Assembly: GCA_003056145.1 (NCBI GenBank)
Contig: LSNL01000003.1
Span: 4,345 to 68,344 of the forward strand
Origin: Parcubacteria group bacterium M10-OD1-1
GTDB taxonomy: Bacteria; Patescibacteriota; Minisyncoccia; Moranbacterales; UBA2206
DNA length: 64,000 nt
Direction: 5' to 3'
The first letter of the stretch is position 1; each line of letters begins with the position of its first letter. Both the position numbers and the translations under genes were made by a program. This document shows positions 1 through 40,337 of this stretch, piece by piece. The notes under the pieces are model-generated. The model had not been told where the DNA came from and did no database searches. It worked only from the letters and a program-made list of their open reading frames with translations.

Positions 1-181
1 TATTTCCAAAACTTAAAAAGAAGTCTCCTGAAAAATTATCTTGAATAAAATCTAGCGTTTCTACTTCTGCTAAATCTCCACAATGAATTATTTTTTCAAT
101 TTTATTTTTTCGACAATAATCTAAAACCTTTTTTAAGTTTGGAATATTATCGTGAGTATCAGAAATAATAGCTAGTTTCAT
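1..181 (-). CDS. metallophosphoesterase (YfcE/MJ0936-like phosphodiesterase), 5' portion; runs off window
   Basis: Reverse-complement translation from ATG at 179-181 gives MKLAIISDTHDNIPNLKKVLDYCRKNKIEKIIHCGDL, the D-x-H-D...GD metallophosphoesterase N-terminal motifs. The ORF continues past position 1. Confidence 0.5.
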   Translation of the reverse strand, partial: MKLAIISDTHDNIPNLKKVLDYCRKNKIEKIIHCGDLAEVETLDFIQDNFSGDFFLSFGN

Positions 182-223
182 AAATTTTTAGAAAAATTAA
201 TTTTAGTCAATAAAACTTTAGAC

Positions 224-1054
224 TTAGGAAGAATTTTTACGTAATTTTTTTAAAGTTAAAATATCTTCAGCTACTTGATCGGGTGAGGTTTCTAAGATTA
301 TATCAATATCTTTTTCTTTCGCTAAGGTTATAATTTTTTGAAAGGGTTCTAGCCCGATTAAGCCTTTTCCAATATGTGCGTGACGATCTTTTTTAGAATT
401 GTATTCAGTTAGAGAATCATTAGCATGAATAATTTTAATTTTTTCTAGTCCAATCTCGGCATCTATTTTTTTAAGAGTCTTTTTGAAATCACGCCAATCG
501 TAACCAGAAGCAAAAGAATGTTGAGTATCTAAGCAAATACCAGCGATAGAAGGATTATTTACTCCTTTAATAATTTGAGCTAATTCTTGAAAATCGCTAC
601 CAATAATTCCTCCTGCTCCAGCGCTATTTTCTAAAAGTAATTTGGTAGTTCCTTGATAATTAGCTAAAGTTTTTTTTAACATCTCAATCGTTTTTTGAAG
701 AGCTAACTCTTTACCTAAATCTTTAGTGGTTCCAAGGTGTGTAATAACAAATTGAGCTTTAAGTAGGGATCCAGTCTCTAATTCTTGACGAATAGCTGAG
801 ATAGATCCATAGCGAATACGATTATTTTTGGAAGCAAAATTTATATAATAAGGAGCGTGAATAACAAAATTTTTAAGTTTATTTTTTTTAATCTCAGTAG
901 AAAATTTCTCAATGATTTCAGAAGTAAGTTGAGTCGCTTTTCCTCCTTGAGGGGAGCGGGTAAATATTTGAAAGCATTCGGCGCCTAGCTCTGTTGCTCG
1001 TTGGGGAGCCTTAAAAATTCCTTCAGCGATAGAAATATGACAACCAATATTCAT
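224..1054 (-). CDS. nfo: endonuclease IV (AP endonuclease family 2)
   Basis: 276 aa. Motifs HAPYYINFAS, ITHLGT, LLLENSAG, CLDTQHSFASGYD, IIHANDS...DRHAHIG and ILET match Nfo metal-binding residues. Confidence 0.8.
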   Translation of the reverse strand: MNIGCHISIAEGIFKAPQRATELGAECFQIFTRSPQGGKATQLTSEIIEKFSTEIKKNKLKNFVIHAPYYINFASKNNRIRYGSISAIRQELETGSLLKAQFVITHLGTTKDLGKELALQKTIEMLKKTLANYQGTTKLLLENSAGAGGIIGSDFQELAQIIKGVNNPSIAGICLDTQHSFASGYDWRDFKKTLKKIDAEIGLEKIKIIHANDSLTEYNSKKDRHAHIGKGLIGLEPFQKIITLAKEKDIDIILETSPDQVAEDILTLKKLRKNSS

Positions 1055-1134
1055 TAAACTAAGTTAGGTGATTACTTATTCATTATAAAACAAAGCTAGT
1101 TAAAAACCAAAGATTAAAAGTAATAAATAATCTC

Positions 1135-2094
1135 TTAAATAATTTTCCAACCATCTTTAATCGGGGCAATTTTTCCTTGAATTTCAAAACCACTAGCTAG
1201 CTTGTGTCCACCTCCACCAAATTGAGCAGCAATTTTAGAAACATCTACTCCCTTATATTCTTCACTGCGAAGGCTACCTTTAATAATGCCATCTTTTCTT
1301 TCAGAAAGAATTAAAGAGAACTTTGTTCCTGGAACAGTATTAAGAATTCCAGCGACTTGAGCAATATCTTCGGTTCTAGCTTCGCATTCTTCTAAATCTT
1401 TTTCAGTTAATACAGAGATAATCATTCCGTTTTCTGGGTTGATTTTAGCTTTTTCAAAAGCTTTTCCCCAAAGTTTTAAGGTAGAAATATTTTTATTAGA
1501 AAAAGTGGTTTCTACTATTTTAGCTAAGGGAGCTCCCTTTTTCATTAAAATAGAAGCAATCTCCATTACTCTAGGGGTTGTATTGGAATGTTGGAACATT
1601 CCAGTGTCAGAGAGAATTCCTAATAGTAAAAATTTAGCTATAGTGTGGTTAATTTCAATATTATTGGTAGAGAAAAAATTATAAATAATTTCACAAACAG
1701 AAGAGTAAGAAGGATCAATGATGTTAATATCTCCTTGGATAGTGATGTCTGGATGGTGATCAATTAAAGCAATAACTTGTTTTTCATTGAAGTTATCTTT
1801 AATTTTCTGAAAACCTCTCTCGACACTATCACAAGCAATAATTAATTTATAGTCAGCAAAATTTATTTGTTCGGGCGATTTAAATTGAATGTTAGAAAGA
1901 GATTTTAAATAATTTGGGAAAGGATCAAAACAGACGATAGTAACAATTTTATTAAGTTTTTTGGCGTACTCATAAAGAGCTAAAACGGAGCCGACAGTAT
2001 CTCCGTCTGGGCGAGAGTGAGCGAAAAGAAGTAAGCTATCAGTTTCTTTGATAGCAAAATTTAAAGTATTAAATTCTTGGGTAAATTTTTCCAT
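1135..2094 (-). CDS. nrnA: DHH-family phosphoesterase, NrnA-like bifunctional oligoribonuclease/pAp phosphatase
   Basis: 319 aa. It has the DHH motif (IDHHPD), a C-terminal GGGH (DHHA1) motif, and an HSRPDGD N-terminal motif. Confidence 0.6.
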   Translation of the reverse strand: MEKFTQEFNTLNFAIKETDSLLLFAHSRPDGDTVGSVLALYEYAKKLNKIVTIVCFDPFPNYLKSLSNIQFKSPEQINFADYKLIIACDSVERGFQKIKDNFNEKQVIALIDHHPDITIQGDINIIDPSYSSVCEIIYNFFSTNNIEINHTIAKFLLLGILSDTGMFQHSNTTPRVMEIASILMKKGAPLAKIVETTFSNKNISTLKLWGKAFEKAKINPENGMIISVLTEKDLEECEARTEDIAQVAGILNTVPGTKFSLILSERKDGIIKGSLRSEEYKGVDVSKIAAQFGGGGHKLASGFEIQGKIAPIKDGWKII

Positions 2095-2149
2095 TTTTTT
2101 AAAACTAAAATAAAATCAGTTTTTCAAGAGCGATTTTTGTCGCTTAAAA

Positions 2150-2479
2150 TTATATTTCTTTTAAAAGTTTTTCAATCTTATCAGCTTCTATTTCAGTCAT
2201 ATCAATTTTAAATTCAACCTTTGGTAGTGGTTTCATATATAATTTTTTGTTTAGTTTTCCTTGAATTTTAGAAATTTCTTTTTGCAAGGTCTTAAGGACA
2301 TAATTAATGTCTGCTTCTGGAAAGACGCTAACAAATATACGAGTGTATCGTAAATCGGGAGTAGTGTCAACCTTAGCAATAGTTACAAAAACACCTTCTT
2401 TTAAAGAAAGGTCTTGAGTTAAAATATCATTAATGTTTTTTTTAATAACTTGATTGATCTTTTCAATTCGTTGAGACAT
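2150..2479 (-). CDS. rbfA: ribosome-binding factor A
   Basis: 109 aa basic protein immediately downstream of infB on the same strand, which is the conserved infB-rbfA arrangement. The sequence is RbfA-like. Confidence 0.65.
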   Translation of the reverse strand: MSQRIEKINQVIKKNINDILTQDLSLKEGVFVTIAKVDTTPDLRYTRIFVSVFPEADINYVLKTLQKEISKIQGKLNKKLYMKPLPKVEFKIDMTEIEADKIEKLLKEI

Positions 2480-2515
2480 CGTTAAGCAGTAGCTAATTAG
2501 TTAGTTGTTTAAATA

Positions 2516-4294
2516 TCACAAAATATTTTTTTTAACTTCTTCTTGATAACACAAGATAGTGTCACCAGTTTTAATTTTAGTTTTTCCAATAAAAGTTATG
2601 CCACATTCTTTTCCTGTTTGACATTCGTCAACATCAACTTTATTTTCTTGAAGATTTCCCATTTTGCCTTTGCCAATACTTTTGTCAGCGCGAAAAACTT
2701 CCAAAAGAGAATTATTAACTAACTTGCCAGAAACAATTTTTCCACCGACAATCATATCTTCTTTCCCATTTTTAAAAATGGCTAAAATTGTTAATTTACC
2801 AAAATCAGTTCGCTCAATCACTGGAGGTAATAAATCAGTTAATTTTTCTTTAATATTATCAATTAGTTCGTAAATAATAGAATAATTTTTAATTTCAACT
2901 TCAGCGGATTCTGCCATTCGTTTTGCCACCGAAGTAGCATCAACACTAAAACCATAAATAGTGGCATTAGAGCTACTAGCTAAGCGAACATCAGATTCAG
3001 TAATATTACCGACACCTACACTAATATATTCAATAGCTACTTCTTCAGATTTTATTTCAGCTAAAATTTGTTGGATAGCTTCTAGAGAACCTTGAACATC
3101 AGATTTTAAAATTATATTTAATTTCTTAATCTTTTCATCAGCGATAGTTTTCATAATTTTCTGAGCACTAAAAGATTCTTGCTCCAGAGAGTTTTTAAAT
3201 TTACTGGAATTCAATTTAGATTTTCCACCAGAACGCTCTACGACTGATTGTAAAATATCGTTAGAGTTAGGAGTGCTTTGAAGTCCGATTATATTGACTG
3301 GAGTTGAAGGTCCAGCTTCAGTAATTCTTTGACCTCTAAAATCTTCAATTCGCCTTACTCTTCCTATTGTAGAGCCAGCGATAATATCTTGACCTTCTTT
3401 TAAAGTTCCTGTTTTAACTAGAATGGTAGCTACTGGTCCTTTTTGAGGGTCTAAATTAGACTCTAAAACAATTCCAATGGGTTCTCGAGAATAATTAGCC
3501 TTATAATCTTCTACTTCTGCCGTTAAAAGAATATTTTCTAAAAGTCCATCAATACCAATATTTTGTTTAGCACTAATTTTAGAGCTTAAAACATCACCAC
3601 CCCATTCTTCTAAAAGAATTCCTTTATCTGCGAGTTCTTGTTTGACTTTTTGCACATTAACACCAACCTTATCTATTTTATTGATAGCTACGACAGTAGG
3701 GATTTTTTTTGCTAAAAGATATTCAATTACTTCACTTGTTTGAGGTCTAACTCCATCATCAGCAGCTACTACTAGAACAGCAATATCAGCCAAGCTAACA
3801 CCTCGTTCTCGCATAGCACTAAAAGCTTCGTGACCAGGCGTATCTACAAAAGTAATAAGCTTACCTTTTTTCTTAACTTGATAAGCGCTGATATGTTGAG
3901 TAATTCCTCCGGATTCTTTACCTGCCACGTTAGATTTTCTAATGGCATCTAAAAGAGTAGTCTTGCCATGATCAACATGTCCAAGAATAGTGACTACTGG
4001 AGGGCGACTTCTTAGATGGTCTCCTGAATCATGTTCTTTTTTTAATAACTCATTAAGTTTTTCTAAAGTCATTTCTCCACTAGCTTCTAAAATTTCTTCG
4101 GAAACTTCAAAACCTAAATCTTGAGCAATAATAGAAGCTGTTTCAAAATCAATTTTTTCATTAATACTAGCTAAAATGCCATTTTTCATTAACTCAGTGA
4201 TGACAATATTAATAGGCAAGCCTAAAAGTTCGCCAAATTTTTTAACGGTGACTGAAGAAGGTAAATTAATTTTTTTTGTGTTTTTTTCGGGCAT
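2516..4294 (-). CDS. infB: translation initiation factor IF-2
   Basis: 592 aa. GTPase motifs [17 protein letters not shown] and NKID, with a C-terminal IF-2 beta-barrel region. Confidence 0.9.
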   Translation of the reverse strand: MPEKNTKKINLPSSVTVKKFGELLGLPINIVITELMKNGILASINEKIDFETASIIAQDLGFEVSEEILEASGEMTLEKLNELLKKEHDSGDHLRSRPPVVTILGHVDHGKTTLLDAIRKSNVAGKESGGITQHISAYQVKKKGKLITFVDTPGHEAFSAMRERGVSLADIAVLVVAADDGVRPQTSEVIEYLLAKKIPTVVAINKIDKVGVNVQKVKQELADKGILLEEWGGDVLSSKISAKQNIGIDGLLENILLTAEVEDYKANYSREPIGIVLESNLDPQKGPVATILVKTGTLKEGQDIIAGSTIGRVRRIEDFRGQRITEAGPSTPVNIIGLQSTPNSNDILQSVVERSGGKSKLNSSKFKNSLEQESFSAQKIMKTIADEKIKKLNIILKSDVQGSLEAIQQILAEIKSEEVAIEYISVGVGNITESDVRLASSSNATIYGFSVDATSVAKRMAESAEVEIKNYSIIYELIDNIKEKLTDLLPPVIERTDFGKLTILAIFKNGKEDMIVGGKIVSGKLVNNSLLEVFRADKSIGKGKMGNLQENKVDVDECQTGKECGITFIGKTKIKTGDTILCYQEEVKKNIL

Positions 4295-4346
4295 AATTTT
4301 TTTAAATACTTAATAAATAATAAAGGAAGTGAGGAAAGAAAATTGT

Positions 4347-4859
4347 TTAGCTAGTTTTATTGGTAGCAATGGCTTTTTTAATGGCTTCTTTTTCTTCTTC
4401 TGTTAATGGATGTTTTTCTGATTGACCATTGATAATCTCCTTGGAATAAATTCTTGCTCCTTCTCTAGTGAAAAGAGAAGAAAGTGTTATTCCATCATTT
4501 TTGCCATTTAGTAGAGCGATTGAGAAGCTTTGGTTACCTCCTACATCCTTAAAAGGATTAAATCTTACTTGTCCAATTTTATGAAAACTTTTAAAAGCTA
4601 AATTATTGATTTGATTGGAAATATTATATAATTCTTGAATATCTTTATCTAATAATTGAAGAGACTTCGCTTGACTTAATAAAAGTTCTTCTAAGTTTTT
4701 AACTTTTTTTCCAGCAAATAAAATTGTCTTCTCTTTTTTAATAATTTGAAACTGAAGATAAAAAAATATATTCCAAGCTAAAAGTATTAAAAACAGAATT
4801 ATAAAAAAAACTAAAATTATTAGTAGATTATTTTGAATTAAGTTCTCCAAAGAAATCAT
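4347..4859 (-). CDS. hypothetical membrane-anchored protein (DUF4446-like)
   Basis: 170 aa. N-terminal transmembrane helix, coiled-coil middle and conserved C-terminal region. The family call is from memory and not verified. Confidence 0.4.
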   Translation of the reverse strand: MISLENLIQNNLLIILVFFIILFLILLAWNIFFYLQFQIIKKEKTILFAGKKVKNLEELLLSQAKSLQLLDKDIQELYNISNQINNLAFKSFHKIGQVRFNPFKDVGGNQSFSIALLNGKNDGITLSSLFTREGARIYSKEIINGQSEKHPLTEEEKEAIKKAIATNKTS

Positions 4860-5171
4860 AGTATTTACTAGCTTAATTTAGATATAAGACTAATTTTAGG
4901 CTAGCATTTATATTTCCTTATGTAAAGCTAAAAGAATTATAATTTGATTAATAATTAAATTTATAAATTCAGAATATTTAAACTACTATTTAAGGGTTGC
5001 ACTAATGCTTTATGCAAGTCAAATTCAAAAGAGTAAGCTATGTACAGAAGAATAGGGCATACAAATGATAAATAAAAGTCTGTCTTACGTTTAAGACGGG
5101 CTTTTATTATTGTGGGCGGTGTCGCCTGCTATCTACTTGACAGATATGAATAAATATGCTAGGATGTACTG

Positions 5172-5335
5172 AATAACAAATAAGTTATTTTTAAAACAAA
5201 CAAATAAATAAATTCTTTGAGGAGAGAGTTACAAACAACGAAAGCTTTATAGCGGTTGTTGTTTAAAGAAAACAGTTAAATGTTTTTCTCTCTTCAGGGA
5301 AGAAAGCATTTAACTGTTTTTTTTTATTTTAAAAA
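5172..5335 (+). ncRNA. candidate small RNA with sigma70-like promoter and intrinsic terminator
   Basis: TTGACA (5137-5142), 17 nt, TAGGAT (5160-5165). Perfect 12-bp terminator stem aacagttaaatg/catttaactgtt (5271-5282 / 5307-5318) followed by T-run 5319-5335. No ORF lies between them. Confidence 0.4.
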
Positions 5336-5439
5336 TATGAAAGACAGATTTTGTTGAAAGAATGATGCAGATGAAATGTGCTTGTTGACACAACTTAAAA
5401 TGATTAAAAGTTGTTAATCCAAGTTTTTATCTTCATCAT

Positions 5440-6640
5440 TCTCTCAATAAAGAGGAGAGAGAAGCTGTTCTTTATATCGAAATAAAATGCTGAAAATATA
5501 TACAAGACCTGCAAGCCTTGTCACTGTGTTGGATAGGTCGCCTTTCGACGGAAACCGATTGCCAATGGCACATTTTACAAATCGTTTTCGTAAGGAAATC
5601 GACTGGGAGTGAAGACTTGAACTATCTTCGCTTTCAGAAATTTCCTTATGAGCGCCTTGTTGTTTAACTCGCTGTGAGTACAACAAGACAATCTAGAGGA
5701 AAATGCTCTTTGAAAAAAAACAAAATCATCATAGGAAGCTATCACGATGGTTTTGTAAACAAAATTGGTACTTGGCAGATAGTCTGTTTGGTTACCGAAA
5801 AAATCAGGGCTAACAAATGCCCCCTTGCCGACATTTTCATGGATGTCGTGATAGCCGAGGTTTCCTAAGGAGGAAATATCATGAATCAAAGAAATACTGG
5901 GAAGGAAGTAGTGTCCTTCCTCTGGAAGGAAGAAGGACTTGATGCGATTTTTTCCGGTGTGTCGTTTAACGACACACCGGACGGCAACGTTTGCACCTTT
6001 CTTTTTAGAAAGCAAGGTGTGAACGACGTACCGATATATTATCGGTACGAAATATTTGAACGACGCGACAGGCGTCGTTCAAAAGGACTGATTTTGACAT
6101 TACTCTTTACGAGTAATGTCAGGTCTCGGGTTGAATGCGTTTCCTTTCTAAAATTTTTAGAAAGGAATGGCCTACTCATCAGAAGGGCTGATGGCCCTGC
6201 TGATGAGTACTATGCCGACCCAAGGTTTATCACCTGTCCGCGCTTTGTGCGGATAAGTGATAAAATGTCTTTGCATTCAGAATTGTTGACCCTGACAAAT
6301 GGGGAAACAATTCTAGTAGAAATCTGGGCTCACTACCCAGAATACGAAGATGAAAATGAAGGAGACTTCCGTATAAAAAACATATGCTGGTTCCCAAAGG
6401 GGCACCATAGTTTTGATACGGAGGAAAATCCTGTAATATTCGCAGGTTTCCTGCGAATATGCCAAAACGGTAATACCGTCTTTGTAGACGGTATTTATTT
6501 CAATAACCGTGGAGGGCGCCACGGTATAATCGAAGAAGCAATTGACACACCAACGGCTACCGAGTAACCCTCGGCTAGTCGACAAACGTCGAGAGGTCGA
6601 CACTAAACAAACCCCCGAGCGACGGTAAGACGCGTTCATG
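5440..6640 (+). ncRNA. hairpin-dense tract of unknown function, candidate large structured RNA or hairpin array. The strand is uncertain; plus is suggested by the downstream plus-strand terminator.
   Basis: At least 25 local inverted repeats, many perfect 9-13 bp with 3-7 nt loops. Examples are 5955-5981 (11 bp), 6027-6049 (10 bp), 6057-6081 (10 bp), 6095-6121 (11 bp), 6141-6167 (12-13 bp), 6436-6460 (11 bp), 5656-5690 (8 bp) and 5832-5851 (6 bp). GC is higher than the flanks. The chance expectation for perfect 9+ bp hairpins in about 1 kb is far below one. Confidence 0.45.
5881..6567 (+). CDS. doubtful ORF (228 aa) overlapping the hairpin-dense tract; probably not a real protein gene
   Basis: Long ORF with an apparent SD aaggagg, but that SD is itself the hairpin tttcct-aagg-aggaaa. 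The ORF is saturated with perfect hairpins, its composition is rich in F and R, and overlapping ORFs occur on both strands, consistent with stop-codon depletion in GC-richer DNA. Confidence 0.2.
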   Translation: MNQRNTGKEVVSFLWKEEGLDAIFSGVSFNDTPDGNVCTFLFRKQGVNDVPIYYRYEIFERRDRRRSKGLILTLLFTSNVRSRVECVSFLKFLERNGLLIRRADGPADEYYADPRFITCPRFVRISDKMSLHSELLTLTNGETILVEIWAHYPEYEDENEGDFRIKNICWFPKGHHSFDTEENPVIFAGFLRICQNGNTVFVDGIYFNNRGGRHGIIEEAIDTPTATE

Positions 6641-6694
6641 AAATAAAATTATCTTGGTGTGAGTCCACCTAAAAACTCACTGCAGAAAGTACTA

Positions 6695-6739
6695 GGGGAT
6701 GAGCTTTCTGTAAGTTCAAGTTCAATCATCCCCTTTTTT
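6695..6739 (+). terminator. intrinsic terminator-like hairpin
   Basis: Stem ggggatga (6695-6702) / tcatcccc (6726-6733) with a 23-nt loop, followed by tttttt (6734-6739). Confidence 0.4.
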
Positions 6740-6999
6740 CCGAAATCATCAGTTTGTTAAAAATTGGTGGTTTCAGAGAAAAGATGCTCTTTGAAAAAAA
6801 TCTACAATACCGCAAATTGGTTGTGAATATTTGAATGTGGGATTGTTTAATTGACAACTAATTTGCAGTATTGTAGAAAAAATCCAAAGCCGGCAGGGTG
6901 TCGGTGGAGGGTAAATATTAATTTGTCTGATGCAATAATGCTGAGGACAACGGCGATTTTTCGCCCCCTAACTCCGGGGCTCGGAGTGGAGGAAGTAAG

Positions 7000-7644
7000 A
7001 TGTCCAATCAAGTGATAACTTTTGATAAAGTTGTGTCTGAGGTGGTTGCCAGCAAGGCAATTAAAAGAAATAAATATAACATCTGCCGCACCTGGCATGG
7101 ATGGATATCGAAAGACGTCCTACATATTACTAGTAGCTCCGGGGCTCGGCGGCGGAAAATTTGGCATTTCCCTATTATAAGGAATGCTGGAAAGGAGATG
7201 TTTTTTAAAAACACGACGGTAACTGCTGATTGCTGGACAGTTATTCCGGCAAAACAAGAAAAAGATCCTTATGGGAGGATTTTGAGACAGTGTAAACAAT
7301 CAAAAAAATTTCTCCACAGACATCAGCCTGGAGAAGTTGTCTATCTCAAAGGGAGATGGGCATATCTTCACTGTCATGTCCCGGGAGAGTCATCGTTTTA
7401 TGTTTCGTTCGATTCGGATGAGACGATCTTCGAAGGGCCCCTGATAAATGTTCCTGGGGGGCATTTTCAATATCAGGATTGGGAAGTGACGCTGTCCAAG
7501 TCCACTTGGGCAGTTGTCAGAAAGGCGCATGCCGATTCAAACGGTCGCGTGCGTAACTTTATCGAGGCTCTCCATATTTGGGGAGAGCCGGATATAGAAG
7601 AGGTTGCCTCCGCTGTGAGGAGAGGAACATTTGGGAGGAGTTAA
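7000..7644 (+). CDS. hypothetical protein (214 aa), uncertain, within the GC-rich insert
   Basis: ATG preceded by ggaggaag SD at -7 and a hairpin actccg-gggct-cggagt. Fewer perfect hairpins than the upstream tract, and a terminator-like hairpin downstream. Composition is W/H-rich and random-like, and I recognise no family. Confidence 0.3.
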   Translation: MSNQVITFDKVVSEVVASKAIKRNKYNICRTWHGWISKDVLHITSSSGARRRKIWHFPIIRNAGKEMFFKNTTVTADCWTVIPAKQEKDPYGRILRQCKQSKKFLHRHQPGEVVYLKGRWAYLHCHVPGESSFYVSFDSDETIFEGPLINVPGGHFQYQDWEVTLSKSTWAVVRKAHADSNGRVRNFIEALHIWGEPDIEEVASAVRRGTFGRS

Positions 7645-7659
7645 AAAGCGGACTTTTGT

Positions 7660-7700
7660 GCAGGATTGATGATTAGTTCTCATTCAATCCTGCCTATTAT
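7660..7700 (+). terminator. terminator-like hairpin downstream of ORF 7000-7644
   Basis: Stem gcaggattga (7660-7669) / tcaatcctgc (7684-7693). The downstream U-tract is weak. Confidence 0.3.
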
Positions 7701-8227
7701 TGGGATTTTAATTTCTTAATTTAAATTGAAATTCCATAATGGGAAATTGTTTATATAAATATAAACAATACATACAAAATATCTCGGTAATGTGAGGTGT
7801 TTTGAGTGAAATGAGATTTGATTTGTAAAACTTTTCGTCTTTGTAATTTTACGAGGACAAGAAACTCTCTCCTCGAGATTTTATGGATTAAATTTCTTAC
7901 TAAACATTTACTCAAACATCTCATATTGTTGAGATAAAAACATCACCTTTAACACAATAGCTTTGGCTTAGTGGTAATGTAGTCTATCGTTGTTGAAGGT
8001 TTTTTTTGTTTCTATGGAATCGGGAATTATTACAGAAGCAGTGACTGCAAAAACAGTGCGCGCTTTATATATAAAGAAAGTTCAAATATCGTTCAAAAGG
8101 TATCGCTATCTTTGAATTTTTGCGTTTTTGGTAGAATTTTGAGTGGGGCTTTGCTCCGCGCAAAGTGCGACCGTGTCTCGTATACACAGGAAGAAATGAA
8201 AATCCCCCAAAACGCTGAAATTGTAAT

Positions 8228-8317
8228 TGGCGGAGGCGGGAGGATTCGAACCTCCGATACCGGTTAAGGTATAACGCTTTTCGAGAGCGCCCTATTCAAC
8301 CGCTCTAGCACGCCTCC
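8228..8317 (-). tRNA. tRNA-Ser (anticodon CGA), type II with long variable arm
   Basis: The reverse complement reads GGAGGCG...CTAG/D-loop...anticodon stem GCGCT/AGCGT with loop CTCGAAA (anticodon CGA)...long variable arm...GGAGG-TTCGAAT-CCTCC...CGCCTCC-G-CCA. The CCA is encoded. Confidence 0.8.
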
Positions 8318-8467
8318 TTTTCTCTCTTTTTAGTATCCTTGATTTTTATCTTTTTGGCAATAAGAAAAAGATGAAATCTAATTACAAATAAAAATAATTT
8401 TTAAGTTGTTGCTTTTAGAAATTTGTTGTAAAATATAAAAGTAAAATAAAAACAAATAAAAACAACG

Positions 8468-9049
8468 ATGTTAGAACAGGAGGAAAAATCAATTCATCAA
8501 TCTTTAGGAGTAGCTAACTCTTTTAAGTTTTTAAGTCCTCAAAAAATAGTTGATCAAATTGAGGTTAATCCAGGAATGAAAATAGCTCATTTTGGTTGCT
8601 CTACTGGTTACTTTACTTTTCTATTAGCTCAAAGAGTTGGAGGTAGTGGTCAGGTTTATGCTCTAGATATTATATCTTCTAAACTAGAAATTTTAAAGAG
8701 CCAGATTAAATTACAAGGAATTAGAAACATTGCAATAAAAAGAGTGAGTTTAGAAAATAAGAATGGTTCTGGCTTGGAGAATGAAAGTATGGATTGGGTA
8801 ATAATGGTTAATATGTTATATCAAAATAATCAAAAGAATAAAATCATCAAAGAAGCAGAGAGAGTCTTAAAACCTGGTGGAAAAATTCTTTTAATAGACT
8901 GGGAAACAGGAGACGATAGAATTGGACCAAAAAAACTTTCACGAATTTCTAAAGGAGATTTAATTAAAATAGTCAGAAGATACAGTTTAGGAATTAAAAA
9001 AGAAATTGAAGTTGGAAATTTTCATTTTGGACTAATACTAGCCAAATAA
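8468..9049 (+). CDS. class I SAM-dependent methyltransferase
   Basis: 193 aa. Motif I-like GCSTGYFT and VYALDI, and the post-I region KPGGKILLIDW, which is the methyltransferase type 11 fold. Confidence 0.65.
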   Translation: MLEQEEKSIHQSLGVANSFKFLSPQKIVDQIEVNPGMKIAHFGCSTGYFTFLLAQRVGGSGQVYALDIISSKLEILKSQIKLQGIRNIAIKRVSLENKNGSGLENESMDWVIMVNMLYQNNQKNKIIKEAERVLKPGGKILLIDWETGDDRIGPKKLSRISKGDLIKIVRRYSLGIKKEIEVGNFHFGLILAK

Positions 9050-9054
9050 AATAT

Positions 9055-10482
9055 ATGACATTAAAAACAAAAAAAAGTAAAATATTTTTCGCTACAGTTT
9101 TTATTTTTGGATTGATTATTTTATCTGGCTGTGGTTTCAAACAAAAAACAGATCATCAATATAATTTAAGTTTAGAAATCTGGGGTCCTTTTGATTACGG
9201 GGATGCTTTAAGAAAAGTTTTTAATAGTTATAAAAAAATAAATCCTAATATTTCTAGTCTTGAGTATAAAAGAATTCCAATTAATACTTATCAAAAAGAA
9301 TTAACAGAAGCTTTAGCAGCAGGACAGGGTCCAGATATTTTCTTTATTCGTAATGACTGGGTACCGAGTTTTGCAGATAAAATAGTTCCTGTTAAAGAAA
9401 TTCCAGGGGTTATTAGTGAGAAAAAGTTTAGAGCTAATTTTATAGATGTAGTGGCTAATGATTTTTTAGTTAAAGGAAATATCTATGCGATGCCTCTTTC
9501 GGTAAATACTTTGGGTTTATATTATAATAAAGATCTTTTTAATCAAGCTGGCATAGTGGCACCACCAAAAACTTGGGATGAATTTTCTGAGGATGTCAAA
9601 AAACTTACTAAAATTAATGCTTTTGGGGAAATAATTCAATCAGGAGCAGCTATGGGGACAGCTTATAATATCAATCGTTCTACGGACATATTAAATCTCT
9701 TGATGTTGCAAAATCAAACTAAAATGATTGATCCACGAGGACAAGTGCTTTTTCAAAAATCAATTTCTGAAAATGGAAAAAGTATTTTTCCTGGAGAAAA
9801 CGCGCTAGCTTTCTATACTCAATTCGCTAACACTAGTTCTCCAGAATATACTTGGAATTCTCAGCTGCATGATTCTATTGATGCTTTTTCTGAAGGAACA
9901 GTTGCGATGATGTTAAATTATCCTTGGAATGTTAAGGTTATAAAAGAGAAGGCACCGAAGCTTAATTTTGCCATTGCACCAGTTCCTCAAATAAAAGATA
10001 AGCCAAAAGTTAATTTTGCTAATTATTGGGGACTAGCGGTTTCTAAAAATAAGACTCCTCAAAGTAATCCATATGGACAATCTAAAAAAGCAGTGGTAAT
10101 TAGTAGTAATACTCGGTTAAAAGAAGCTTGGACTTTTTTAACATACTTAACTACTAAGCCAGATGGAACTTTTAATAATAAGGCTAGTACAAAAGTTGGG
10201 CAAGTTACAGAAGCTAATTTTGATCCTGCTAAAAGTTGTTTAACTCAAACCGGTGAACCAGCTGCTAGGCGTGATTTAATTAAAGAGCAAAAAGATAATC
10301 CGACTATTGGTGTTTTTGCAACAGATAATTTAATTGCTCAAAGCTGGATAGAGGTTGATCCTTCTTCTATTGAGTCAATTTTTGCTGAAATGATTGATCA
10401 AGTTAATAAAGGACAGGCAACAGTGGCTGGAGCTATTAAAACAGCCGCTCAAAGAGTTCAAATATTATCCAATAATAATTAA
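9055..10482 (+). CDS. ABC transporter extracellular solute-binding lipoprotein (family 1, sugar-type)
   Basis: 475 aa. Signal peptide plus lipobox LSGC and an SBP_bac_1-like sequence. No permease or ATPase is adjacent. Confidence 0.65.
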   Translation: MTLKTKKSKIFFATVFIFGLIILSGCGFKQKTDHQYNLSLEIWGPFDYGDALRKVFNSYKKINPNISSLEYKRIPINTYQKELTEALAAGQGPDIFFIRNDWVPSFADKIVPVKEIPGVISEKKFRANFIDVVANDFLVKGNIYAMPLSVNTLGLYYNKDLFNQAGIVAPPKTWDEFSEDVKKLTKINAFGEIIQSGAAMGTAYNINRSTDILNLLMLQNQTKMIDPRGQVLFQKSISENGKSIFPGENALAFYTQFANTSSPEYTWNSQLHDSIDAFSEGTVAMMLNYPWNVKVIKEKAPKLNFAIAPVPQIKDKPKVNFANYWGLAVSKNKTPQSNPYGQSKKAVVISSNTRLKEAWTFLTYLTTKPDGTFNNKASTKVGQVTEANFDPAKSCLTQTGEPAARRDLIKEQKDNPTIGVFATDNLIAQSWIEVDPSSIESIFAEMIDQVNKGQATVAGAIKTAAQRVQILSNNN

Positions 10483-10486
10483 AAAA

Positions 10487-11410
10487 ATGAAAAACCTTAT
10501 TAAAAAAGTTCCTCTAATCTTTAGCACATTATTAATCAGTAGCCTCTTTCTTTTTTTTGGAGTAGCTAACTCGCAAGCTTCTACTGCTGAATGTACTGCT
10601 CAAGGAGGTATCTGCGCTACAGTAGGAGGAAGTGGTTGTTTAAGTGGTAGCCCTATTGCAAATATAACTTGTTCTGGTGGGGTAACTTGTTGTACGAATG
10701 TAACTCCTAAGAGTTCTACTATTTGTTGTCAGGTCTCTGGACAAGGTTGCGGAGAAATTAACGGAAGCACTTGTCCAACAGGAATGAATTTTTTAGGTAC
10801 TGGTTCTTGCTCTAGCTTTTCTGCCTGCCAAATTAAGACTTCAACAGGGTCTTCTGCTAATACTAATAATGGGAATTCAATTACTTTTTCTAATCCGATT
10901 GGATTTACTACTTTTGCTGGCTTATTGAACTCCATTCTAAATCATATGATGGGTATTATTGCTACTATTGCAATAGTCTTTATGATTCTGGGAGGTATAA
11001 TGTATATGATGTCTGGTGGCAATGAAGGAATGGTAACTAAAGCTAAAAAAACTTGGACTGGAGCTATTATTGGTCTAGCGATTGCGTTGGCTTCGCCAAC
11101 TTTTTTAAAGGAAATTCAAAAAATTCTTAATGGAGGAGGAACAGGAGGGAGCGCTCAAGCTTGGGTAAGTAAAGCGTTAACACTTAAAGAAATTGCTATT
11201 AATGTTGCTAACCTATTGTTGTCAATTTTAGGTATTCTTGGTATAATTGCCTTAATAATTGGAGGTGGAATGTATTTAACTGCCTATGGTGATGAAAGAA
11301 AAATTGATACTGGAAAAAAGATAATCACCTTTGCGATTATCGGTATTGTCGTAGCTCTCTCAGCAGTTATTATCACCAAACAAGTTTCCGTTATTTTAGG
11401 AGCAAATTAA
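10487..11410 (+). CDS. secreted Cys-rich protein with duplicated TrbC/VirB2-like pilin-family C-terminal domain
   Basis: Start chosen at the internal ATG 10487 (MKNLIKKVPLIF..., signal peptide). About 20 Cys in the N-domain, then two copies of the motif hydrophobic helix-GG-MY(L/M)-G-(D/N)E-K-hydrophobic helix, as in the three downstream paralogs. Confidence 0.5.
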   Translation: MKNLIKKVPLIFSTLLISSLFLFFGVANSQASTAECTAQGGICATVGGSGCLSGSPIANITCSGGVTCCTNVTPKSSTICCQVSGQGCGEINGSTCPTGMNFLGTGSCSSFSACQIKTSTGSSANTNNGNSITFSNPIGFTTFAGLLNSILNHMMGIIATIAIVFMILGGIMYMMSGGNEGMVTKAKKTWTGAIIGLAIALASPTFLKEIQKILNGGGTGGSAQAWVSKALTLKEIAINVANLLLSILGILGIIALIIGGGMYLTAYGDERKIDTGKKIITFAIIGIVVALSAVIITKQVSVILGAN

Positions 11411-11478
11411 ATTAGAACAAAAGAAAGTTTAATAGGATAGTTAAAAAATAAATATACAAAATAGAAAGGAGGTGTTAT

Positions 11479-11832
11479 ATGAAAAATAAAATTAGAATAA
11501 TGATTTTCTCAGTAGCCTCAACTACCTTGACTTTTCCAGCTTTGGCTTTAGCTCAATTTAGCGCTCCTGCCGGAACTGGACTACCTGTTAATTCAGTTTA
11601 TGATATTATTTCAGGAATAATGTTTTGGTTGTTGGCAATAGTGGGGATAGTGGGTGTTATTGGTTTTGCTATTGCAGGAATCCTCTACTTAACAGCAGCG
11701 GGAGATGATTCTAGGATTCAACAGGCCAAAAGTGCAATGCTCTATTCTATTATTGGAGTAATTGTAGCTTTATCTGGTTTAGTAGCAATCCATTTTGCTA
11801 GCGGGTTATTAGGTGGTCAAAGGCAATTCTAA
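11479..11832 (+). CDS. TrbC/VirB2-like pilin-family small membrane protein
   Basis: 117 aa. Signal peptide and conserved core WLLAIVGIVGVIGFAIAGILYLTAAGDDSRIQQAKSAMLYSIIGVIVAL, which is two transmembrane helices around an AGD motif. An RBS aaaggagg lies upstream. Confidence 0.5.
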   Translation: MKNKIRIMIFSVASTTLTFPALALAQFSAPAGTGLPVNSVYDIISGIMFWLLAIVGIVGVIGFAIAGILYLTAAGDDSRIQQAKSAMLYSIIGVIVALSGLVAIHFASGLLGGQRQF

Positions 11833-11952
11833 TTAAAGAATTCTTTGAAATTTCAAAACAAAAACAGATTGTTTTAATAGTCTGTTTTTGTTTTTTGTTT
11901 TTTTATTGTATAATATAAGCGAGGTATTATTAAATAAATTTAAAATAAAAAA

Positions 11953-12348
11953 ATGAAATATTTGAAATTAGGAATTCAAAAAATAAAGCAAGGGAGATAT
12001 TTATTAGGTAGTTTTTTTGGACTTAATCTTAATTCTTCTAGTGGAGGTGGAGGGAACGGTAGTGGTTGGAATCCAGGGAGTCTTAGTCAATTCAATCTTC
12101 CTAATGCTTCTATTTATAGTATTATAGAAAATATTTTAAATTGGTTATTGGGTATTTTGGGAATTATTGGAGTAATAGGTTTTGTGATTGCTGGAATTTT
12201 TTATTTAACAGCAGCTGGAGATGAATCTCAAATTACTAAAGCTAAAAGTGCTTTGAAATATTCTATTACGGGTGTCATCGTGGGAATAGCTGGTCTAGTG
12301 ATTATTCAAGCAGTTAACGCAATGCTTAACGGAACTTCTCTTTTTTAA
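11953..12348 (+). CDS. TrbC/VirB2-like pilin-family small membrane protein
   Basis: 131 aa. Gly/Ser-rich N-region and the same conserved C-terminal core (NWLLGILGIIGVIGFVIAGIFYLTAAGDESQITKAKSALKYSITGVIVG). Confidence 0.5.
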   Translation: MKYLKLGIQKIKQGRYLLGSFFGLNLNSSSGGGGNGSGWNPGSLSQFNLPNASIYSIIENILNWLLGILGIIGVIGFVIAGIFYLTAAGDESQITKAKSALKYSITGVIVGIAGLVIIQAVNAMLNGTSLF

Positions 12349-21992: not shown

Positions 21993-22498
21993 CAAAAATA
22001 AAAAAACTCTGGACTGGCTCTGGAGTTTTTTTCTTTCTGTTAGTAGAATGGAGGATTGAATAGATAAATACAAACTAGAAAAGATACAAAAGAATTTTTA
22101 TAGAGAACGCTGATAAATTTGAGTAAGTGGGAATTTGGCATTAGCTAGAACAATGAGATTGAATTTATTGAGGCGAGATGAAACTTTCTTGACACTTAAA
22201 AGGTTGTTTAAGCTTTTGTTATTTTAGAGTAAAAATAATATTTGAAATAAATTATTGTACGAAAAGTAGTAATGGTATTTTATTAAGGGAGATGATGTTA
22301 TAATCTGTATTTAGAATAAAGTTTTAGCTAGAATAAGGTGTAAATATTAAGCTATTCTTTGGGTGAGGTGATAAAAGCTTGACAAGATTTTGTTTATCTG
22401 CTAGGGTGAACTTTAAAGGTATAAAAAAGAAAGTTATTTAACAATCATTGCCTAGGAAGGAGTTTCCTGGGTTAAAAAACTAAAAAAGGAGAGCGGTT

Positions 22499-23347
22499 AT
22501 GAAAAAAGAATTGTTACTGGTGTGTCTGGTGTGTTGTCTAATGGTTTTTCCAAGTCAAAGTTTTGCTGATTCGTCAGGCGTTGGAATCGCTGGCGCTCAG
22601 GCTGTTATTAACGGAGGGGATGTCCAGGTGAATCCTGGGCAAGTTGTGTCTCCAAGTGCGAATGCGAATCTGAGTATCGATTCGCATTCGAAAGTGAGCA
22701 ATCGTAATTTTTTGCAGACGGGATATCCAGCGGCCCCAGCGCCGATGACTTACTTTGGCCCCTGGAAAAAGGGACTACCGTATAATGTAATCCAACTTGC
22801 AGTTGGATCGGTATGGAAGTGGGCAGGAATGAGGAAGGTATCTTCCAGTAGTGCTAAAGCACTGTTAGAAGATATCCAACATCCATTTCCGCCGACGGCA
22901 GAAATAAAAGTTGTCTCCCCTGAGAAAGGGGAGGGAACCTTTGTCGGCAATATTGTTGTCCTAGTTGACAGCAATCAAGCGAGCTTTAACGCTCGCAACA
23001 TAGCTCTAAAAGTAGCCATGAAGGCTGGTGCCGACCAGCTGGAAATCTATTCCAACAATTACATTCAGAAGCCAACTAGCTCTGGTTGGCATTTCGGTTT
23101 TGGCGGTGGTGCCTCGGGCATCATCGGCAATGATAGCACATCAATTGCAGGCTCAGGAGGAACCGGATTTGGATCCTCCAGCCTTCATTTGGCGAGCCTT
23201 CCATTTATTAAGGCCCGTCTTTGGAGGTCAGCTACTGCAGTTGATTTGGCCAGCGTCAGCGAAGACGAAAGCTATGCACCGGCGGTCAAAGCCAAATCTT
23301 CTAATGAGGATTGGCATATAAAAGACTTAAGTAATTTTGACAATTAA
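22499..23347 (+). CDS. secreted protein of unknown function (GC-rich, likely horizontally acquired)
   Basis: 282 aa. Signal peptide MKKELLLVCLVCCLMVFPSQSFA, SD ggagag upstream, and a Gly-rich C-region. Composition contrasts strongly with the flanking AT-rich genes. No family recognised. Confidence 0.5.
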   Translation: MKKELLLVCLVCCLMVFPSQSFADSSGVGIAGAQAVINGGDVQVNPGQVVSPSANANLSIDSHSKVSNRNFLQTGYPAAPAPMTYFGPWKKGLPYNVIQLAVGSVWKWAGMRKVSSSSAKALLEDIQHPFPPTAEIKVVSPEKGEGTFVGNIVVLVDSNQASFNARNIALKVAMKAGADQLEIYSNNYIQKPTSSGWHFGFGGGASGIIGNDSTSIAGSGGTGFGSSSLHLASLPFIKARLWRSATAVDLASVSEDESYAPAVKAKSSNEDWHIKDLSNFDN

Positions 23348-23472
23348 CAAAAAAGGAGGTGATTTTCAGAATTTTCAGTAAGTAACACGAGTAACATAAC
23401 ATTCTCCATTCCTAGTTGGGATGGAGGTAATTATGGGACATTCCCGTGTCCCGAACAAAAAAGGAGAAAGTC

Positions 23473-23901
23473 ATGAAAAAGATGTTATCAAAAATGGCAG
23501 TATCGATGTCAATTATTGCCCTGATTATGGTTGCCATCCCGGCTCTTGCCCAATCAGGAGGAAGTGTGGAGGGAGGTAATTCGTCCTGGCTGTCAGGCTT
23601 TGATAATGGCATTACCCACATCTCGGCCAATCAACGATCCTGGCAACAGACAGTTATCCAGGTACCCGGTCAAACATTTAACGCCGTTTCAAACAGCAAC
23701 ACCGGGTTCCAGCTGAATGCTGCCGATGGCGTAGCCGCCGCCGAAACAACTACAGATATAGGTTTTTACACTAATTCTAGTGGAAACCTGGGAGCCTTTT
23801 CTGATGCCAATGTGGCATCGATCGCTGCAGGTAACGCCATGAGCATTACCTGGGCAGCCTCAAATTCTTCCCTGAGCCAATATGGTGGCGGGGAGCGATA
23901 G
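23473..23901 (+). CDS. secreted protein of unknown function (GC-rich)
   Basis: Start set at ATG 23473 (MKKMLSKMAVSMSIIALIMVAIPALA signal peptide) with SD aaaggag 7 nt upstream. The listed ORF begins at an upstream GTG. A strong terminator follows. Confidence 0.45.
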   Translation: MKKMLSKMAVSMSIIALIMVAIPALAQSGGSVEGGNSSWLSGFDNGITHISANQRSWQQTVIQVPGQTFNAVSNSNTGFQLNAADGVAAAETTTDIGFYTNSSGNLGAFSDANVASIAAGNAMSITWAASNSSLSQYGGGER

Positions 23902-23919
23902 TCTAAAGGTTCTGCTGAT

Positions 23920-23960
23920 GCCACCAAGATATCTAATATCTTGGTGGCATTTTTTTTTAT
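23920..23960 (+). terminator. intrinsic terminator
   Basis: 12-13 bp perfect stem gccaccaagatat / atatcttggtggc with a short loop, followed by a run of 9 T. Confidence 0.7.
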
Positions 23961-24016
23961 TAAATTTTAAGAGTTTTAGAATGGAAGCTAAAGCTCCTTT
24001 ATGATACAATGACAAA

Positions 24017-37606: not shown

Positions 37607-37683
37607 TTATTTAAAATAACAAACATACATAGAAAATATAAAATTTTTTTGAAGGGTATTTTCTATAAAATGTTTTTGAAAAA

Positions 37684-38727
37684 ATGAAAGAATCTAAAAA
37701 AGAGAAAAACATCAATGCGGTTATTGATGAAATTAAAGAAAGGTTTGGCGAGGGAGTAATTATGAAATTAGGTGACATCAAAAAAGTAGATGTTGCTTCA
37801 ATTCCGACTGGATCTATCTCTTTGGATATTGCCTTAGGAATTGGTGGTATTCCTCAAGGGAGAGTAGTAGAAGTTTATGGACCAGAATCCTCTGGGAAGA
37901 CTACGCTAACTCTCCATATTATTGCTAATGCTCAAAAAGCAGGAGGAGTAGCTGCTTTTATTGATGCAGAGCATGCGTTAGATCCAGAATATGCTAAAAA
38001 AATAGGAGTTAATATTGATAATCTTTTAATTTCTCAACCAGATAATGGTGAACAGGCTTTGGATATTGTAGAAACTTTAGTTAATTCAGGAGAAATAAGT
38101 GTTATCGTGATTGACTCAGTAGCCGCCTTAGTACCGAAGGCAGAGATTGAAGGAGATATGGGGGCTCATCATATGGGAACTCAAGCTCGATTAATGTCGC
38201 AAGCTTTAAGGAAATTGACAGCTATTATTGCTAAATCTAATTGTACAGTTATTTTTATCAATCAGATTAGAATGAAAATCGGTGTAGTCTTTGGTAATCC
38301 AGAAACAACAACTGGAGGAAATGCTCTAAAGTTTTATTCTTCGGTGCGAATTGAGGTTCGTCGTTCAGCCCAAATTAAAAAAGCTGATGATATTGTAGGC
38401 AATAGAACTAAAATTAAAATTGTTAAAAACAAAGTAGCTCCACCATTTAAAACAACAGAATTTGATATTATGTATAATGAGGGTATTTCAGCGTCAGGAG
38501 ATATTTTAGACACAGGAGTTAAATATGAGATTATCAACAAGAAAGGAAATTCTTATTCTTTTAACGAAATAAAATTAGGCGTAGGGAGAGAAAAAGCTAA
38601 ACAAACATTAAAAAGTAATTTAGAGATTATGCAAGAAATTTCTAAAAAAATCTATGTTAAATTAGATGAGATAGAAGCGGAAAAAGAAAAAGAAACAGAA
38701 ACAGAAAAAGAAAAAGAGCAAAAGTAG
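37684..38727 (+). CDS. recA: recombinase RecA
   Basis: 347 aa. Walker [10 protein letters not shown] and RecA L1/L2 loop regions. Confidence 0.9.
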
Positions 38728-40313: not shown

Positions 40314-40337
40314 CTACCGTTAAAAATTCTGATCAAT

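Follow-up and report, generated by a model that had tools for sequence, protein, structure and literature searches.

A dense chain of perfect hairpins coincides with a probable orphan gene in a strain-variable cassette of a Moranbacteria genome

Hairpins in coding sequences

Perfect hairpins are normally kept out of coding sequences, since each stem couples two stretches of the encoded protein. Folded and translationally sequestered mRNAs are known among the mRNAs of type I toxins (hok, for example) and among the genomes of single-stranded RNA phages. Coding palindromes have been described in mitochondrial genes of Nematomorpha (hairworms), where perfect inverted repeats reach up to 284 bp, long palindromes avoid phase 3 (third positions pairing together) and template switching or arm conversion has been proposed as the mechanism (PMC6649704, 2019). 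They are the closest precedent for the tract analysed here, at positions 5440-6640 of a 64,000-nt stretch (the window; contig LSNL01000003.1 of assembly GCA_003056145.1) from a member of the Patescibacteria, Candidatus Moranbacteria (Moraniibacteriota). The tract is a real and extreme array of hairpins and coincides with an open reading frame (ORF) of 228 codons, ORF1, which is probably an orphan protein-coding gene. Such hairpin-packed coding sequence was found described only for hairworm mitochondria, and a literature search found no report of hairpin-rich coding regions in Patescibacteria and no publication dealing with the source accessions.

ORF1 resembles the hairworm genes in carrying many perfect, non-repetitive inverted repeats in coding sequence with both arms translated; ten perfect stems of at least 7 bp have both arms within this single gene, the coding status of which is probable. 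In both cases, the repeats are perfect or absent, pairing of the arms is achieved through synonymous choice, relatives differ in their stem pattern and the candidate generator is template switching. The perfect-or-absent pattern is found in ORF1 but fails for the adjoining ORF2 (214 codons), whose hairpins are imperfect. Several differences exist. The hairworm palindromes lie in conserved respiratory genes, whereas ORF1 is an accessory orphan gene on a bacterial chromosome, with stems of only 7-16 bp. Here, the untranslated regions (UTRs) and the ribosome-binding site (RBS) are structured as well, and the rest of the genome is unaffected. Among seven short ORF1 stems, phase-3 stems show no evident depletion of the kind known from Nematomorpha, and ORF2 shows sense-strand conservation that tolerates G-U pairs, typical of RNA-level selection.

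The likeness to hok mRNA and to single-stranded RNA phages is a functional analogy: structure extends over the whole coding RNA, the Shine-Dalgarno (SD) sequence lies in a stem, and the RNA is presumed to be long-lived and slowly translated. At 214-228 residues, however, the proteins considered here are unlike small membrane toxins, a partner antisense RNA was not identified, and the tract is DNA-encoded and chromosomal, with neither replicase nor coat genes. Rickettsia palindromic elements (RPEs), PARCEL repeats, intragenic MITEs (miniature transposable elements with inverted repeats) and repetitive extragenic palindromes (REPs) are further cases of hairpin DNA tolerated within coding sequence. 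These are copies of one consensus, dispersed or tandem, whereas the stems of the tract have no copies elsewhere in the window, in 89 loci or in viral contigs. Because every stem is unique, the tract falls outside the families of repeated palindromic elements, and membership of the RPE, REP/BIME, MITE and PARCEL groups was rejected.

The hairpin array and ORF1

The preliminary description of this DNA, read from the letters alone, had announced at least 25 inverted repeats in 5440-6640. All the hairpins that it named were located at their positions by sequence reading and an inverted-repeat search, including a nested hairpin placed at 6171-6210 and found as 6173-6209, a hairpin formed by the SD of ORF1 at 5861-5876 and an imperfect inverted repeat at 6801-6877, with arms of 28 nt. 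The announced number is reached only when imperfect helices are counted (the minimum free energy (MFE) structure has ∼25-30 helices) and does not hold for perfect stems. For perfect stems, 5440-6640 contains 21 stems of at least 6 bp, 7 of at least 8 bp and 7 of at least 10 bp, versus 2.5, 0.15 and 0.01 expected from 300 dinucleotide shuffles. The excess is thus extreme and does not resemble the controls. As proposed, the stems are all different in sequence and the array is non-repetitive.

Enrichment is centred on 5881-6567, where 17 of the 21 stems of at least 6 bp are found. The entire window has 33 perfect stems of at least 8 bp with loops of 1-9 nt, and seven of them, each of at least 10 bp, lie within 5953-6495. 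RNAfold yields -299.7 kcal/mol for 5881-6567, far below the -178 +/- 8 kcal/mol of shuffled sequences (z -15 on the plus strand), and the minus strand of ORF1 has a z of -16. The segment 5950-6090 alone folds with -74.5 kcal/mol (z -11.9). For comparison, the background z, obtained by scanning most of the window 200 nt at a time, has a mean of -0.47 and an SD of 1.55, and 10 of the 15 windows between 5001 and 8000 reach z<=-5. The extent first proposed for the tract needs amendment: the tract is real, but its 5' part is much weaker than claimed and the anomaly is also wider; no perfect stem of at least 7 bp occurs in 4860-5719. The sequence is 99.9-100% identical in four independent metagenome contigs, and a 96%-identical variant retains the hairpins. 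Therefore, the tract is not an assembly artefact.

Evidence for coding comes from several features of ORF1. A strong SD (AAGGAGG) lies 7 nt ahead of the ATG, and the stop-free run extends over 232 codons. A length of 228 codons was reached in none of 2000 dinucleotide shuffles (maximum 226) and in none of 2000 randomisations that preserved the hairpins (maximum 200). Relative to the 96% variant, the indels in ORF1 are of 6 and 3 nt, both in frame, while the two upstream indels are of 1 nt each; 7 of the 15 substitutions in ORF1 are synonymous, against 4.1 expected (P=0.085) and 3 of 15 in each of the other frames. Composition depends on codon position in ORF1 (p=0.007) and in ORF2 (p=0.019), and the 228-residue sequence is present as a called gene product in a public protein collection (NCBI- and Logan-sourced). 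Taken together, it is quite likely that ORF1 is translated.

The relatives of ORF1 are limited to P0001 (95-96% identical) and to one weak match (E 5.8e-5) in an HMMER scan of 1.8 billion representative proteins, in which residues 183-228 (a 47-residue match) align with the end of a CIA30/CBM11-like repeat, its final strands plus linker. The hairpins 6436-6460, 6472-6495 and 6506-6525 encode IFAGFLRIC, NTVFVDGI and the following residues, and this segment (6436-6525) is the one similar to the final strands of a CBM-like domain. IFAGFLRIC and NTVFVDGI are encoded directly by two perfect hairpins; therefore, protein and stem use the same bases. Searches of Pfam, PHROGs, PADLOC, NCBIfam and PDB sequences gave nothing significant for six orphan ORFs (those of two islets of the window and of the L002 islet, see below), and ORF1 had no match in the PDB. 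Comparison of 5300-7700 with phage and plasmid collections by blastn in distant mode gave no match. Collection scans found no relatives in viral contigs or in a first scan of genome contigs and only those already known in metagenome contigs. The longest hairpin and the conserved ORF2 leader, looked for in viral contigs as exact patterns, were not found either. ORF1 and ORF2 were also considered as paralogues, an idea that was rejected (BLASTP E=1).

The preliminary description had likened the tract to giant non-coding RNAs (ncRNAs) of the GOLLD, ROOL and OLE type. A large multi-hairpin ncRNA, or a precursor of small hairpin RNAs, in which the 228-codon ORF would be incidental or vestigially translated, is an improbable explanation. 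It would account for the folding z of -15, for a core without periodicity that is conserved at all codon positions, for the GC enrichment in an AT-rich genome, typical of structured RNAs, and for an orphan protein without a confident fold. In addition, the tract shares with GOLLD, ROOL, OLE, HEARO and raiA RNAs a size of ∼1 kb, multiple helices, a GC content above that of the genome, an association with tRNAs or islands and an intrinsic terminator. Those RNAs, however, have junctions, pseudoknots and conserved loops, whereas the tract consists of simple perfect hairpins, has an ORF with an RBS and is without a covariance-model match. The Rfam search that had been suggested (cmscan of the whole window at the gathering score) returned three tRNAs only and no large-RNA family. 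With Rfam 15, the region 4800-8400 gave only sub-threshold microRNA-type chance matches at E<=10 with permissive filters, so that a match is seen at no threshold. The tract thus does not belong to the large Rfam RNAs (GOLLD, ROOL, OLE, HEARO, raiA, group I/II introns), and the earlier view that it can be assigned to no known family stands.

Other evidence against a non-coding tract is that a strong SD and ATG lie exactly at the start of a stop-free run whose length was unmatched in 4000 randomisations, that the indels are in frame, that the synonymous excess occurs in the ORF frame only and that the adjoining ORF2 is similarly structured yet unambiguously coding. A synonymous substitution pattern supporting the 228-residue ORF, named at the outset as an observation that would speak against a structured RNA of the proposed kind, is indeed seen, though weakly (P=0.085), and the non-coding reading is therefore disfavoured. 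An ncRNA in general has no conserved translatable frame; here, the SD, the stop-free run, the in-frame indels and the weak synonymous excess all indicate one. Since the array coincides with a gene-like ORF and has no Rfam match, it is most likely not a giant ncRNA.

Codon choice, conservation and the origin of the stems

The ORF1 hairpins depend on both the choice and the order of synonymous codons. Synonymous-codon permutation shifts the folding energy of ORF1 from about -298 to -186 +/- 6.5 kcal/mol (z -17) and lowers the number of stems of at least 6 bp from 17 to 2, whereas four host genes treated in the same way have z values of -0.1 to -1.6. No other part of the cassette is as conserved as the hairpin core: 5953-6250 represents 44% of ORF1 but holds only 1 of the 15 substitutions relative to the variant (P=0.002). 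Much of the remaining divergence reshapes stems. Thus, the variant changes at 5928 and 5931, both synonymous, make a perfect 11-bp stem out of an imperfect one, the change at 5905 weakens a competing upstream stem and that at 6387 (Cys to Trp) makes a 7-bp stem perfect, as read from the aligned sequences. The two in-frame deletions of the variant cut parts of both arms of one hairpin, and the changes at 6024 and 6436 leave G-U on the plus strand in place of G-C or A-U pairs.

The reading favoured here, with middling confidence, is that the tract corresponds to the mRNA of a protein-coding cassette that varies between strains and that the transcript is selected as a dense hairpin chain with a sequestered RBS. 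The ORF1 transcript would form a succession of stem-loops, short (7-16 bp), non-repetitive and for the most part perfect, that runs from the 5' UTR and RBS to the terminator, with the hairpins acting in the sense RNA. A compact mRNA of this kind, with little single-stranded surface, may resist single-strand-specific RNases, Rho loading or RNA-guided targeting, while sequestration of the RBS would throttle translation initiation and give a long-lived, slowly translated RNA. The perfect stems may be made or renewed during replication by short-range template switching between hairpin arms, which is likely to be their source.

Template switching might also suffice without any benefit to the RNA. 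It is possible, although rather doubtful, that the stems are non-adaptive, ‘parasitic’ coding palindromes, produced at the DNA level by template switching or arm conversion in a weakly constrained orphan gene that is coding but has functionless stems. Such a process has a precedent and a proposed mechanism (PMC6649704). It is consistent with the perfect-or-absent character of the ORF1 stems, with ten perfect stems of at least 7 bp and only two single-mismatch stems (5994-6019 and 6173-6209), and with the changes at 5928 and 5931, which are 3 nt apart in one arm and jointly give a perfect stem, a multinucleotide signature of template switching. It is also consistent with equal folding of ORF1 on both strands and with the apparent lack of avoidance of phase 3 (n=7). 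However, conversion alone leaves the substitution rate unlowered, whereas the core evolves slowest, and the process must spare host genes of the same chromosome (z ∼0) and other inserts at the same genomic site (see below). In addition, the UTRs and the RBS are structured too, and ORF2 has imperfect hairpins that favour the sense strand and persist over ∼30% divergence.

The ORF1 stems being perfect Watson-Crick helices, both strands fold alike, and action at the RNA level and at the DNA level are inseparable in ORF1 itself. Around ORF1, the sense strand is favoured. Of the fifteen 200-nt windows of the islet, 11 have a lower z on the plus than on the minus strand, and the folding z of ORF2 is -6.7 on the plus strand versus -1.9 on the minus strand, and -5.5 relative to synonymous shuffles. 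ORF2 has two relatives: P0002, a copy identical at 100%, and P0003, which aligns with 41% of the query at 53% identity. A profile search found no more. P0003 is encoded in another low-GC genome, in a GC-rich, hairpin-dense islet of ∼1.3 kb (loci L002-L006). The N-terminal 80 residues are conserved between ORF2 and P0003 through third-position changes, and a 5'-UTR element upstream of ORF2 is kept as well (Table 1).

The leader and first 90 codons of ORF2 and P0003, which are ∼70% identical, were compared pair by pair. In this comparison, 92.7% of cells are paired, versus 38-45% after a shift of the partners by 1-3 columns, and eight two-sided (compensatory) pair changes are seen, versus 0-3 in the shifted controls. 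A further 12 one-sided changes preserve the pair as G-U. The consensus energy is -86.8 kcal/mol in sense versus -66.8 kcal/mol in antisense, where many pairs become A-C. Because only two distinct sequences are available and the structure was derived from them, this pairing evidence is supportive and not conclusive. A 16-nt motif, TA(A/G)CTCCGGGGCTCGG, occurs twice in this region, 165 nt apart, in the leader hairpin of ORF2 (6969-6984) and inside ORF2, where it encodes SSGARR (7134-7149).

Several observations weigh against selection of the ORF1 transcript as a hairpin chain. Each of the two ORFs is represented by no more than two distinct sequences, and the two strands of ORF1 fold equally well. 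The near-lack of one-mismatch stems suits active arm conversion better than a balance of selection and mutation, and stems with a single mismatch that allow G-U and A-C to be compared are few. The phases of the seven ORF1 stems of at least 10 bp, as defined in PMC6649704, are 3, 2, 3, 3, 1, 1 and 2 (n=7, short stems), so that the core stems lie mostly in the protein-constraining phase 3 (three of the first four), unlike the prediction for strong amino-acid selection. On the protein side, the hairpin core is without codon periodicity (p=0.47) and the synonymous excess reaches only P=0.085. The CBM-like similarity spans only 31-47 residues, with 31 columns at a probability of 38% in an hhalign comparison of ORF1 with the CBM-like repeat, and AlphaFold2 models built from two-sequence alignments are uninformative (predicted local distance difference test scores, pLDDT, of 32 and 36).

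The islet, its cassette and their significance

ORF1 and ORF2 lie in an islet between a DUF4446 gene and tRNA-Ser(CGA) (Table 1); infB, rbfA and genes for a DHH phosphoesterase, a methyltransferase, a solute-binding protein and pilins of a type IV secretion system (T4SS) are also among the flanking genes. The DUF4446 protein has its best relatives in Candidatus Moranbacteria, which assigns the window to that group. The proposed location in a GC-richer insert beside a tRNA gene is borne out: GC content is 42-43% at about 5500-7500 versus ∼30% in the genome, and the 200-nt z values are -3 to -10 inside the islet versus ∼0 for the host genes on either side. A distance of 140-260 bp separates tRNA-Ser(CGA) from DUF4446 in most of 33 Moranbacteria loci, against 3,369 bp here, and six species representatives have unrelated inserts of 0.8-3.3 kb in the same gap (L010, L013, L015, L017, L020 and L039). 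Therefore, 4860-8227 is an islet at an insertion hot spot and, by comparison with relatives, an insertion beside a tRNA.

Five of the six other inserts (all but L013) were folded and none is hyperstructured (z ∼0). Related loci (1.26 Mb) have 0.33 stems per kb (at least 8 bp, at least three G-C pairs) and at most five per 700 nt. Since the other inserts and the related loci are ordinary, hyperstructure is peculiar to this islet, and the idea that it is a general trait of hot-spot inserts or of Moranbacteria was rejected. The islet ORFs are all orphans, none is of integrase size, and no repeat of the tRNA 3' end was found as an att site at the far border. An origin of replication, suggested by a GC-skew minimum near 4.5-5 kb, was rejected, as the region is without a DnaA-box cluster.

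Table 1. Positions of the hairpins, genes and other elements discussed in the text
Feature	Position	Strand	Description
DUF4446 gene	4347-4859	-	Left neighbour of islet
Islet	4860-8227	+	∼3.4 kb between DUF4446 gene and tRNA-Ser(CGA); hyperstructured almost throughout
Left direct repeat AGAGGAAAATGCTCTTTGAAAAAAA	5695-5719	+	25 nt; junction in cassette-less L007
Cassette A body	5720-6774	+	With one repeat copy, the 1,081-bp unit absent from GCA_003056095.1
Imperfect hairpin, arms ACAAAATCATC / GATGGTTTTGT	5720-5756	+	5' end of cassette; inverted-repeat search, MFE structure
SD hairpin TTTCCT-AAGG-AGGAAA	5861-5876	+	Half of SD AAGGAGG (5867-5873) sequestered; 7 nt before ATG
ORF1	5881-6567	+	228 codons, orphan; 17 perfect stems of at least 6 bp
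Hairpin core	5953-6210	+	5953-5981, 5988-6025, 6027-6049, 6055-6083, 6095-6121, 6141-6167 and 6173-6209 in tandem
Perfect hairpin	5953-5981		Stem 14 bp, loop 1 nt
Perfect hairpin	6027-6049		Stem 10 bp, loop 3 nt
Perfect hairpin	6055-6083		Stem 12 bp, loop 5 nt
Perfect hairpin	6095-6121		Stem 11 bp, loop 5 nt
Perfect hairpin	6141-6167		Stem 13 bp, loop 1 nt
Perfect hairpin	6436-6460		Stem 11 bp, loop 3 nt
Perfect hairpin	6472-6495		Stem 10 bp, loop 4 nt; additional to the hairpins named earlier
Perfect hairpin	6506-6525	+	
Hairpins across ORF1 stop codon and in 3' UTR	6555-6625	+	MFE structure
Intrinsic terminator, stem GGGGATGA...TCATCCCC then T6	6695-6739	+	ORF1 transcript; sequence and fold
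Right direct repeat AGAGAAAAGATGCTCTTTGAAAAAAA	6775-6800	+	26 nt
Inverted repeat	6801-6877	+	Arms 28 nt, 89% complementary; fold -33.6 kcal/mol, z -8
5'-UTR element CCCTAACTCCGGGGCTCGGAGTGGAGGA	6966-6993	+	Kept between ORF2 and P0003; hairpin pairing part of SD; 9 invariant pairs
ORF2	7000-7644	+	214 codons, orphan, sense-strand mRNA structure
tRNA-Ser(CGA)	8228-8317	-	Conserved neighbour of DUF4446; marks insertion hot spot
Orphan ORF	22499-23347		282 aa; signal-peptide-like N-terminus
Orphan ORF	23446-23901		151 aa; signal-peptide-like N-terminus

Within the islet, ORF1 belongs to a cassette that varies between strains. In GCA_003056095.1 (locus L007; 99.6-99.8% identical), the sequences matching 1-5719 and 6775-11588 abut with a 25-nt overlap (blastn); therefore, the window holds an extra 1,081 bp. 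The two direct repeats are spaced by 1081 nt from start to start, and L007 has one hybrid copy. The cassette comprises a structured leader of 160 nt, the SD hairpin (-7.9 kcal/mol, 59% of the ensemble), the 228-codon ORF, 3' UTR hairpins and the intrinsic terminator. This plus-strand terminator had been predicted at 6695-6739 and is present there, as a stem GGGGAUGA...UCAUCCCC followed by UUUUUU; its unusually large loop explains why a pattern scanner did not list it. The only direct-repeat families inside the region are two-copy matches of 12-20 nt. Seven of eight independent metagenome contigs that cover the cassette or ORF2 (L001, L090-L096) begin or end within 6607-6757, the exception being L093, which spans 5827 to 6715, and the 96% variant diverges sharply at 6608-6616. 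The unitig breaks at 6607-6757 may reflect the presence of both cassette alleles in those samples, population variation or a drop in coverage.

A unit of 1.08 kb with one gene, terminal direct repeats and presence/absence polymorphism could also be a cassette with a single-stranded DNA stage, akin to integron cassettes or rolling-circle elements, with the hairpins serving as recombination or priming sites, as single-stranded DNA promoters or as protection from nucleases. This is very improbable. The perfect Watson-Crick stems would suit it, as would T4SS-pilin genes 2 kb away. The right arm of the inverted repeat 6801-6877 appears to hold a promoter-like TTGACA (6851-6856), a spacer of 17 nt and TAGAAA (6874-6879) upstream of ORF2, unlisted by the scan tool, and this -35/-10-like pair would then be placed in a duplex stem. 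However, no integrase, Rep/HUH or relaxase was found among the ten ORFs in 224-11410 scanned against Pfam, and no circular junction contig of the cassette was found. Sequence reading detected no attC-type GTTRRRY core at the junctions, the boundaries being the direct repeat ...ATGCTCTTTGAAAAAAA, although no formal attC model search was made; the attC cores and the integrase or array of an integron gene cassette are thus not seen. Moreover, the cassette was met in one genomic context only, the G-U preference of the sense strand of the islet points to RNA, and slippage between 20-nt repeats explains a deletion equally well.

Action at the DNA level as an array of palindromic protein-binding or cruciform sites is hardly credible. 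The palindromes are perfect and two have a single central base (5953-5981 and 6141-6167), but a 1-nt centre in 2 of 7 equals the chance frequency for 3-nt RNA loops. The palindromes lie within ORF1 or its UTRs and go no further than the terminator, and no shared half-site was seen; as all of them differ in sequence, they have no common binding motif.

Other features of the islet and its surroundings deserve mention. At the DUF4446-proximal edge, a promoter-like element (5137-5165; TTGACA, 17 nt, TAGGAT with a TG extension) is followed by a structured stretch of ∼160 nt that terminates in a 23-pair hairpin with T9 (5265-5332; fold z -7.9). The segment 5137-5332 is a candidate small RNA or leader, present in genomes with and without the cassette, and had no match in Rfam (the best, Thr_leader, scored 28 bits, where the gathering score is 55). 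Three T4SS-pilin (PF18895) genes in a row lie at 10394-12348, 2 kb past the tRNA, and the latter two share ∼71% identity over ∼160 nt. In the genome of a related member of the Patescibacteria (L013:14470-15088), several palindromes have a common core GGGGC(A/G)ATTC...GAAT(T/C)GCCCC; this looks like a REP-like family of repeated elements, unlike the unique stems of the ORF1 tract.

A second GC-rich islet (∼45%) is found at 22400-24000, directly after tRNA-Pro and tRNA-Gly, and contains two orphan ORFs (Table 1). The ORF of 282 codons (22499-23347) is hyperstructured, with z values of -8.6 and -10 relative to dinucleotide and synonymous shuffles, and has a perfect 12-bp stem (22659-22690) together with 8-bp stems; a perfect 15-bp hairpin is also present in this islet (23918-23950). 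Outside both islets, isolated 200-nt windows at 11801, 37601-38000, 39401 and 48201 reach z values of -4.3 to -5.6 and probably represent terminators or structures between genes; nothing relevant was matched when 37000-40500 was scanned against Rfam by E-value. An AT-rich perfect palindrome of 18 bp (40335-40371, AATAAAAAATCTCCTAAA A TTTAGGAGATTTTTTATT), just past an ORF ending at 40313, is probably a bidirectional terminator.

It is tempting, although this is unlikely at present, to propose that Patescibacteria have a class of small accessory cassettes with ‘armoured’ mRNAs, in which protein and hairpin chain co-evolved as an active strategy and not as a mutational accident, leaving hardly any single-stranded surface on the entire transcript, UTRs and RBS included. 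Its first members would be ORF1, ORF2, the 282-codon ORF at 22499-23347 and the islet with the ORF2 homologue in a second lineage. Possible purposes of such armour are evasion of Rho/RNase surveillance or of RNA-guided immunity against foreign genes, and survival of extracellular RNA in an episymbiont.

Hyperstructured genes are known from two or three lineages only. A bacterial gene with ∼17 perfect stems in 687 nt shows the capacity of the genetic code to satisfy two simultaneous demands, and GC-rich, extremely structured islands in AT-rich genomes need not be ncRNAs. If the stems are of mutational origin, the cassette would be a bacterial counterpart of the nematomorph palindromes and would naturally report on mutagenesis by template switching. 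If they are selected, they would point to an unrecognised pressure that acts on accessory-gene transcripts in ultra-small episymbionts, such as mRNA surveillance, RNA-targeting immunity or RNA longevity.

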